Positions 43,636 through 43,693 of a stretch of 64,000 bases of DNA are shown one piece after another (positions within the stretch are counted from its first letter, which is position 1; the number at the start of each line of letters is the position of its first letter). Origin of the DNA: Eledone cirrhosa (lineage: Eukaryota); assembly GCA_964016885.1 (NCBI GenBank), contig OZ024742.1, positions 273,854,001-273,918,000 of the forward strand, written 5' to 3'. The notes below the pieces were generated by a model that made no database searches, had not been told where the DNA came from, and saw only the letters and a program-made list of their open reading frames with translations. The translations under genes and the position numbers were made by a program.

Positions 43636-43693
<58 letters not shown>

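Follow-up and report, generated by a model that had tools for sequence, protein, structure and literature searches.

Two LINEs meet at one microsatellite in the genome of Eledone cirrhosa (3.0 Gb). The tract at 43636-43693 is (TAA)19, 100% pure and without a mismatch. A Dong-like LINE on the plus strand has its 3' end at 43635, and a LINE with an APE endonuclease, on the minus strand, has its 3' end at 43694, so the two lie tail-to-tail across the tract. Why do two kinds of LINE use the opposite strands of one repeat, and was the repeat the target of these insertions or their product? The analysis started from the window, that is, the whole 64,000-nucleotide stretch around this tract, and was extended to other loci of the same genome. 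The labels Tx1-like (for the APE LINE) and Dong-like are given by domain order and target preference, as read from sequence, rather than by a tree against named references.

Layout of the window and orientation of the element ends

The features of the window are as follows.
3528-8115, plus strand: array of AAT, Dong-like A (3607-4100), AAT, SINE on the minus strand (4148-4262), AAT, Dong-like A (about 4286-8090) and AAT.
9204-9627, minus strand: copy of F2, a repeat not related to these elements, whose internal (ATT)3 at 9245-9256 holds no insertion; it serves as the empty-site reference.
21554-22046, minus strand: truncated Dong-like A, head-to-head with a Tx1-like 5' end over a short tract.
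22058-26999, plus strand: near full-length Tx1-like LINE with a true 5' end and about 800 bp missing from ORF1; remains of APE, RT and zf-RVT; ATT at both ends.
27000-27023, no strand: (ATT)8, tail-to-tail between the Tx1-like LINE and Dong-like A.
27024-30023, minus strand: Dong-like A in two collinear pieces (27024-27756 and 28436-30023), AAT at the outer ends.
27757-28435, plus strand: ATT, SINE (27784-27968), ATT, truncated SINE, ATT and 250 bp of a Tx1-like 5' end.
34137-34320, plus strand: solo SINE, 13-bp target duplication starting ATTAT, no tract.
38632-38812, minus strand: solo SINE, 20-bp target duplication starting ATTAT, no tract.
39663-43635, plus strand: Dong-like family B, apparently full-length, interrupted by stops and frameshifts, flanked by AAT at either end and with PD..D..K at the C-terminus.
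43636-43693, no strand: the (TAA)19 tract, common to the tails of Dong-like B and the Tx1-like LINE.
43694-44468, minus strand: 5'-truncated Tx1-like LINE with a 90% match to the young family, ATT at either end.
44469-44516, no strand: tract at which the tail of one Tx1-like copy meets the truncated head of another, both in one orientation.
44517-52210, minus strand: stack of diverged Tx1-like copies and fragments with 3' ends at 44517, 46006 and 46296, which are 69-89% alike; one 5' end, near 52160, has decayed ATT before it.
52211-58948, minus strand: more Tx1-like copies and fragments in one orientation; short ATT junction near 55795.
60054-62379, plus strand: Dong-like pieces to 62187, (AAT)4, then a SINE on the minus strand (62200-62379).

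Some details of the window stand apart. At 27750-28448, the two Dong-like A pieces overlap by about 12 bp around the SINE/Tx1 insert, and the Tx1-like insert is a 250-bp 5' fragment without a body. The segment 28182-28435 was considered as a separate AAT-tailed family and rejected, since it proved to be the Tx1-like 5' end. At 39640-39663, where ATT switches to AAT, a SINE and Dong-like B both lie on the plus strand, and each keeps its own-strand unit. The PIF1-like helicase frames at 1572-2914 are probably a Helitron remnant. The regions 19974-21512 and 13389-14356 hold a 1.5-kb imperfect inverted repeat (79%) that has related copies and is likely a fold-back or MITE-like element.

The preliminary description of this DNA had claimed that Dong 3' ends run into AAT-type repeats on their own strand, and that Tx1 and SINE 3' ends run into ATT. 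All six named Dong ends (degenerate at 8083 and 21555) and all six checked Tx1 ends (two units only at 52213) agree with it, and the proposed shared tracts were found at 27000-27023, 4101-4147 and 62188-62199. For the SINE, the short motif stood, as 9 of the 10 window ends start with ATTAT; the claim that every end runs into the repeat did not, as three units are present in 5 of the 10 only.

To count polarity, element ends at AAT/ATT tracts of at least four units were scored by the rule that Dong reads AAT and that Tx1 and SINE read ATT. Ten loci overlapping the window or duplicating others were excluded, identical tracts were counted once, and antisense SINE was masked in two library entries. 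The results showed this polarity at 22 of 22 ends in the window, at 22 of 22 ends in an unselected 400 kb (40 stretches of 10 kb at fixed spacing; binomial p 5e-7), and at 518 of 521 ends over all loci. The orientation is thus not random across the genome. Tail-to-tail, head-to-head and, within each group, head-to-tail arrangements all occur, which makes four geometries. (ATT)3 directly follows 7,311 of 9,501 Tx1 3' ends (77%), and (AAT)3 directly follows 2,703 of 2,915 Dong B ends, both by genome-wide exact motifs.

The association is also seen from the side of the repeat. In the unselected sample, 17 of 31 AAT/ATT tracts adjoin Dong, Tx1 or SINE elements. The corresponding figures are 103 of 5,000 for random positions and 4 of 479 for microsatellites of other kinds. 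With more than half of the unselected tracts beside these elements, the repeat offers a sequence-level cause for pile-ups of transposable elements. At element-selected loci, elements lie on both sides of 199 of 357 tracts.

The LINE families and the SINE

Young copies of the APE LINE are 6.03 kb long, about 99% alike among 20 fetched copies, and carry two ORFs (ORF1 of about 700 aa, ORF2 of 1,138 aa). ORF1 gave no Pfam match, and its translation contains one CCHC motif (CX2CX4HX4C); a CCHC knuckle in ORF1 is a feature of the Tx1 clade. ORF2 matches the Pfam families Exo_endo_phos, RVT_1 and zf-RVT, its catalytic motifs are present, and its best solved structure is human L1 ORF2p (E 2.6e-52, residues 4-854). 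The homologues are almost all unnamed; they include a Ciona pol-like protein (27%) and one automatic 'TX1' label. As in the L1 group, 5' truncation and target duplications are found.

Many uninterrupted young Tx1-like ORF2 frames of 1,195-1,204 aa point to recent activity, and young intact copies often stand head-to-tail at a spacing of about 6.05 kb. At least four unrelated 5' UTR/ORF1 starts occur on the conserved ORF2 and 3' end (L171-L190, L071-L100, L064, L184, L024). All these 5' variants begin with G directly after ATT, a pattern of repeated 5' replacement. In the L186 comparison, a run labelled as another organism has contigs 99-100% identical to most of the young element, at low depth. 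These contigs stand beside deep, diverged copies and may come from a close relative, contamination or transfer.

Dong belongs to the R4 clade. Dong-like family A, which like the APE LINE has intact young copies, is 4.5 kb long with a single ORF of 1,141 aa, in which RT is followed by CCHC and a PD..D..K motif, both read in the translation. Its best structural matches are R2 proteins, a domain search found no APE family in its protein, and no named reference stands among the 120 homologues listed. Both families, A and B, have the TAA-repeat target. The Dong-like and APE LINE proteins are alignable in RT only (26% over 281 aa).

A sister of the Tx1-like LINE served as an internal control. Its DNA is about 70% alike and its endonuclease 56-59%, and 4,353 exact 3' ends were counted. 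None of 25 examined ends lies at (ATT)3, and most lie at TATCTAT or TATATAT. This indicates that the ATT preference is not a general drift into AT-rich DNA and that target choice is family-specific. The endonuclease loop just before the YLDR motif, which matters in L1 work and may matter here, differs at one position between the two LINEs. Copies of the sister at L045:3570-3900, L048:4750-6560, L059:7328-7680 and L253-L277 have a similar 3' hairpin with another loop. The first description had spoken of an APE endonuclease converging on the complementary strand. The fixed opposite polarity was confirmed. The specificity may be set by the endonuclease or by RNA-primer pairing, and the convergence itself looks like a small shift among TAT-containing repeats within the Tx1-like lineage, as the sister already uses such repeats.

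The SINE follows a shorter motif. Among 150,743 exact 3' ends, ATTAT comes next in 123,857 (82%) and (ATT)3 in 23,724 (16%). In the unselected sample, 12-17% of ATTAT sites extend as (ATT)3, which is close to the rate at the SINE ends; the SINE therefore follows the five-base motif rather than the repeat tract. LINE ends are strongly concentrated in tracts, with 77% of them at (ATT)3 against 16% for the SINE.

The 3' ends of the two elements resemble each other. The last 28 nt of the SINE and the Tx1-like LINE align without gaps (32 of 85 distinct ends aligned). Among distinct ends having the CTTGT loop, it lies 16 nt from the end in 33 of 34 SINE and 38 of 43 LINE ends. The stem has 3-4 pairs, and three of four pairs are changed on both sides between SINE and LINE yet still paired; in 13 of the 32 aligned ends the outer pair does not form. 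For four of the six commonest SINE ends the lowest-energy fold is not the shared hairpin, and the shuffle control for the hairpin is inflated by related sequences. The shared hairpin, together with the shared duplication signature described below, makes the Tx1-like APE LINE the likely carrier, and the SINE is likely mobilised by it in trans through this hairpin. A likely carrier can thus be named for one of the most abundant SINEs of the genome. In a search for tRNA-like sequence, ARAGORN at a lowered threshold marks four SINE heads, but also 19 other places; Rfam gave no match.

At L211:6388-6425 and at L245, the terminal 35-40 nt of the SINE adjoin a Tx1-like 3' end, with at most a few bases in between; these joints are possible template switches between both RNAs. 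At L059:1500-4400, a SINE has inserted into an element whose decayed frame is enclosed by inverted terminal arms (about 500 bp).

Target site, added tail and likely growth of the tract

(ATT)3 lies directly before 2,295 of 2,373 young full-length Tx1 5' ends (97%), and an older 5' variant has ATT upstream in 30 of 30 cases. Truncated 5' ends, after boundaries continuing in the same family had been set aside (4 Tx1, 2 Dong A, 1 Dong B), adjoin at least three own-strand units in 19 of 43 copies for Tx1, 40 of 62 for Dong A and 29 of 34 for Dong B, against a null of 0.3-1.2%. Opposite-strand units were found at no Tx1, one Dong A and no Dong B end. The 24 Tx1 and 22 Dong A boundaries without three units are later deletions or boundary errors in some cases, not in all. 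In young copies, 3' tracts have a median of about 15 units, and 5' tracts one of about 7-8.

Target duplications were found where the site was not a tract. Non-simple duplications flank 13 of 35 random SINE copies; for the total of 126 copies the count is 34, against a null of 80 of 3,000, and some of the 34 are still ATT-rich. They are mostly 12-20 bp long, start with ATTAT in 30 of 34 cases and are preceded by T or C in 85%; the other four start with GTTAT, ACTAT or ATTAA in both copies. The duplications of the Tx1-like LINE are 11-22 bp long, overlapping those of the SINE in length, and also start with ATTAT; examples are L005 and L014. In 30 loci chosen for lacking a pure tract, the Tx1 5' end lay outside the locus in 18 and one gave no hit; among the 11 visible non-tract junctions, a script found duplications at 4 (null, 120 of 2,000), and one more was seen by eye. 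No added ATT units were found at any of these short sites, that is, at L005, L014, the SINE duplications and the visible Tx1 junctions.

The repeat F2 allows empty and filled sites to be compared. F2 is an unclassified repeat of more than 18,000 copies (window positions 9204-9627 and 33171-33618) that ends with (ATT)3 and then (TA)n; some copies form inverted pairs a few kb apart. At 18,594 empty F2 sites the modal form has three ATT units, and 5 of the first 100 listed are at least 9 bases longer than that form. In L203, a full-length Dong A lies within F2 with tracts on both sides and F2 flanks intact. At 12 Tx1-filled sites, from a search that demanded ATTATT upstream, 6-11 units lie upstream in 11, and a second element lies directly behind in 11. 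On the right, the F2 flank could be traced in L211 and L216, as a variant in L215 and approximately in L219; the F2 site of L216 carries an array of Tx1, Dong B and SINE. In L203, L211, L215 and L216, two to four tracts, mostly of 5-16 units, replace the three-unit site. Filled F2 paralogues hold more ATT than empty ones, and growth by insertion and choice of rare long sites are not fully separable in this comparison. Contigs of public runs break off at the repeats; none bridged a site without its element, a result of no weight either way, and no orthologous empty allele was seen. Because ATTAT is duplicated as part of the target and ATT is present in empty paralogues, ATT exists before the insertion.

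Taken together, we consider it highly probable that two unrelated LINE groups insert in AAT/ATT repeats in a fixed opposite orientation, likely with opposite first nicks and with insertions that likely lengthen the target. In target-primed reverse transcription, the strand opposite the sense of the element is nicked first. For the Tx1-like LINE and the SINE, an APE first nick at 5'-ATAAT/R-3' on the AAT strand would prime reverse transcription; this nick site is suggested by the T or C before 85% of the duplications. The Dong-like LINEs would be primed from a nick on the ATT strand. Inside a tract, a stagger of 12-20 bp would duplicate about 4-7 repeat units per insertion, so each insertion would leave two usable tracts, and more insertions would follow on the longer target. 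The poly(A) signal of the Tx1-like LINE lies 6-8 nt before its end, so the LINE RNA would run into the tract. The AUU repeats at the ends of such read-through transcripts could pair with the target and give a taste for long tracts. RNA pairing may explain why the LINE prefers long tracts more than the SINE does.

Pairing between RNA and DNA could also set the target by itself, a reading that we regard as rather unlikely. The APE would then nick AT-rich DNA loosely, and only primers that pair with the AUUAU end of the RNA would be used. The Dong-like LINEs would do the same with AAU, and the polarity would come from RNA tails with no convergence of endonucleases. It would account for the much higher share of LINE than of SINE ends in long tracts, for the AAC/AAT units that Dong A ends carry themselves, and for ATT at 97% of full-length but 44% of truncated 5' ends, as expected from an AUU leader. 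In RTE elements, 3' microsatellites have been linked to the first base of the duplication (PMC6007223, in the part of that paper covered). However, GTTAT, ACTAT or ATTAA in both copies of 4 of the 34 duplications means that these bases come from the target and that a terminal mismatch is tolerated in priming. The short sites received no ATT units, and swaps of the SART/TRAS endonucleases move the target (PMC7265360, in part). Pairing and endonuclease targeting can act together.

The claim that the site is a self-reinforcing sink held in part: the target pre-exists, it is left on both sides, and multi-element arrays are present, but feedback is not fully separable from a preference for long tracts. 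Without feedback, slippage would have made the long tracts, which would be the best targets for both groups and the places where insertions survive. We hold this to be improbable. In its favour, a few per cent of the F2 sites without an insertion have long tracts, none of these elements adjoins 14 of the 31 random tracts, and the order of insertions is unreadable from one genome. On the other hand, duplications of 11-22 bp necessarily add units where the site is a tract, the three-unit site became two to four tracts in the four F2 loci named above, and 11 of 12 Tx1-filled F2 sites have the second element. Self-reinforcement of AAT/ATT landing sites is therefore supported, not proven.

It is very improbable that the tracts are only tails added by reverse transcriptase, with unspecific insertion and chance adjacency. 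The longer 3' tracts leave room for some addition at that end. Tracts also stand at 5' ends, those of truncated copies included, ATTAT belongs to the duplicated target, empty paralogues hold ATT, and more than half of the tracts at element-selected loci (199 of 357) are flanked on both sides. The outcome that would have spoken for tails, ATT without a pre-existing counterpart, was not what was seen, and the duplication and empty-site data rule out tails as the sole cause. Arrays made by tandem duplication or assembly error are scarcely credible: young copies often stand head-to-tail about 6.05 kb apart and a few segmental duplicates occur (L075/L076, L148/L159/L160), but adjacent Tx1-like copies of the window match each other at their 3' ends by only 69-89%, and the arrays mix unrelated families.

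Returning to insertion into pre-existing repeats, we put forward a wider version of it tentatively, as possible rather than probable. The tract would act as a landing pad, which the APE LINE, the hairpin-matched SINE (at least 150,000 copies) and the restriction-like LINEs would each lengthen. Two endonuclease classes, each acting on one strand, would build each other's targets, account for much of the AAT microsatellite content of the genome and turn three-unit sites into multi-kb arrays, and the LINE would be an animal L1-group element with stringent hairpin recognition. If this is true, the LINE and its sister with the TATCTAT target are a natural pair for mapping APE specificity. The intact young copies and the sister with another target open to direct test the long-standing question of whether APE LINEs select microsatellites through endonuclease or RNA pairing.

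Comparison with known systems

The papers below are compared for the parts of their text that were covered. SART and TRAS, of the R1 clade, use opposite strands of the telomeric (TTAGG)n of Bombyx (PMC7265360). There, too, two LINE families insert in one tandem repeat in opposite orientation, one strand each, and the repeat is left on both sides. The difference is that both are APE elements of one clade at telomeres, whereas here an APE and a restriction-like LINE share a dispersed microsatellite with a SINE as the third user. Keno (Tx1, APE) and Utopia (restriction-like) insert at one site in the U2 snRNA gene (PMC4640811), so one target evolved in parallel in both endonuclease classes. In that case the same site and 3' flank in a gene are used, mostly in different hosts; in our case the strands are opposite and the elements form mixed arrays in one genome.

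L1/Tx1-group APE LINEs specific for microsatellites have been described as Kibi (TC)n and Koshi (TTC)n (PMC3812793) and as the crocodilian Tx1 of (TTCC)n/(TTTC)n (PMC4494074). The present LINE differs in its target, ATTAT/(ATT)n, and its sister in TATCTAT. Neither target appears in the covered parts of PMC4494074 and PMC3812793, and nothing on an ATT target was found in the covered parts of PMC4758252, PMC8869645 and PMC5786205. ATT is thus added as a target of Tx1-like LINEs. With ATT at 97% of its 5' ends and 77% of its 3' ends, the Tx1-like LINE lies above the 20% target-preference criterion of Kojima 2015 (PMC4494074).

Dong elements target TAA repeats in Bombyx, as DongAg and as the snail DongBg (PMC3812793). 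The Dong-like elements agree with them in the single ORF, RT with C-terminal CCHC and PD..D..K, and AAT on both sides; nothing essential differs, and two families are present here. The same review places Dong with the APE elements, at variance with the domains of the Dong-like elements. The 2026 Octopus vulgaris annotation reports recently active Dong-R4 and L1-Tx1 families, and the word 'target' is unused in the covered part of its text (PMC13282606). An ATT-specific Tx1, sharing between Dong and Tx1, or a Tx1 partner for the SINE was not found in the literature searched, Repbase and subscription papers (e.g. Kojima and Fujiwara 2004) aside.

A SINE has been assigned to a Tx1 or L1 partner by target, as with SINEU and Tx1-Mar, which have a common target (PMC4494074), or by hairpin, as with monocot L1 and ZmSINE2/3, which share a 3' hairpin with compensatory changes (PMC3747384). 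SINEs with L1-clade tails are rare; a 2013 review counted only three and named plant and algal cases (PMC3747384). In the present case target and hairpin both agree, and the likely partner is an animal L1-group LINE. The pattern is real, genome-wide and well supported. It belongs with the known cases of microsatellite targeting, to which it mainly adds the likely partnership with the SINE and the data from empty sites. Each part has a precedent, and the combination is new relative to the literature searched.
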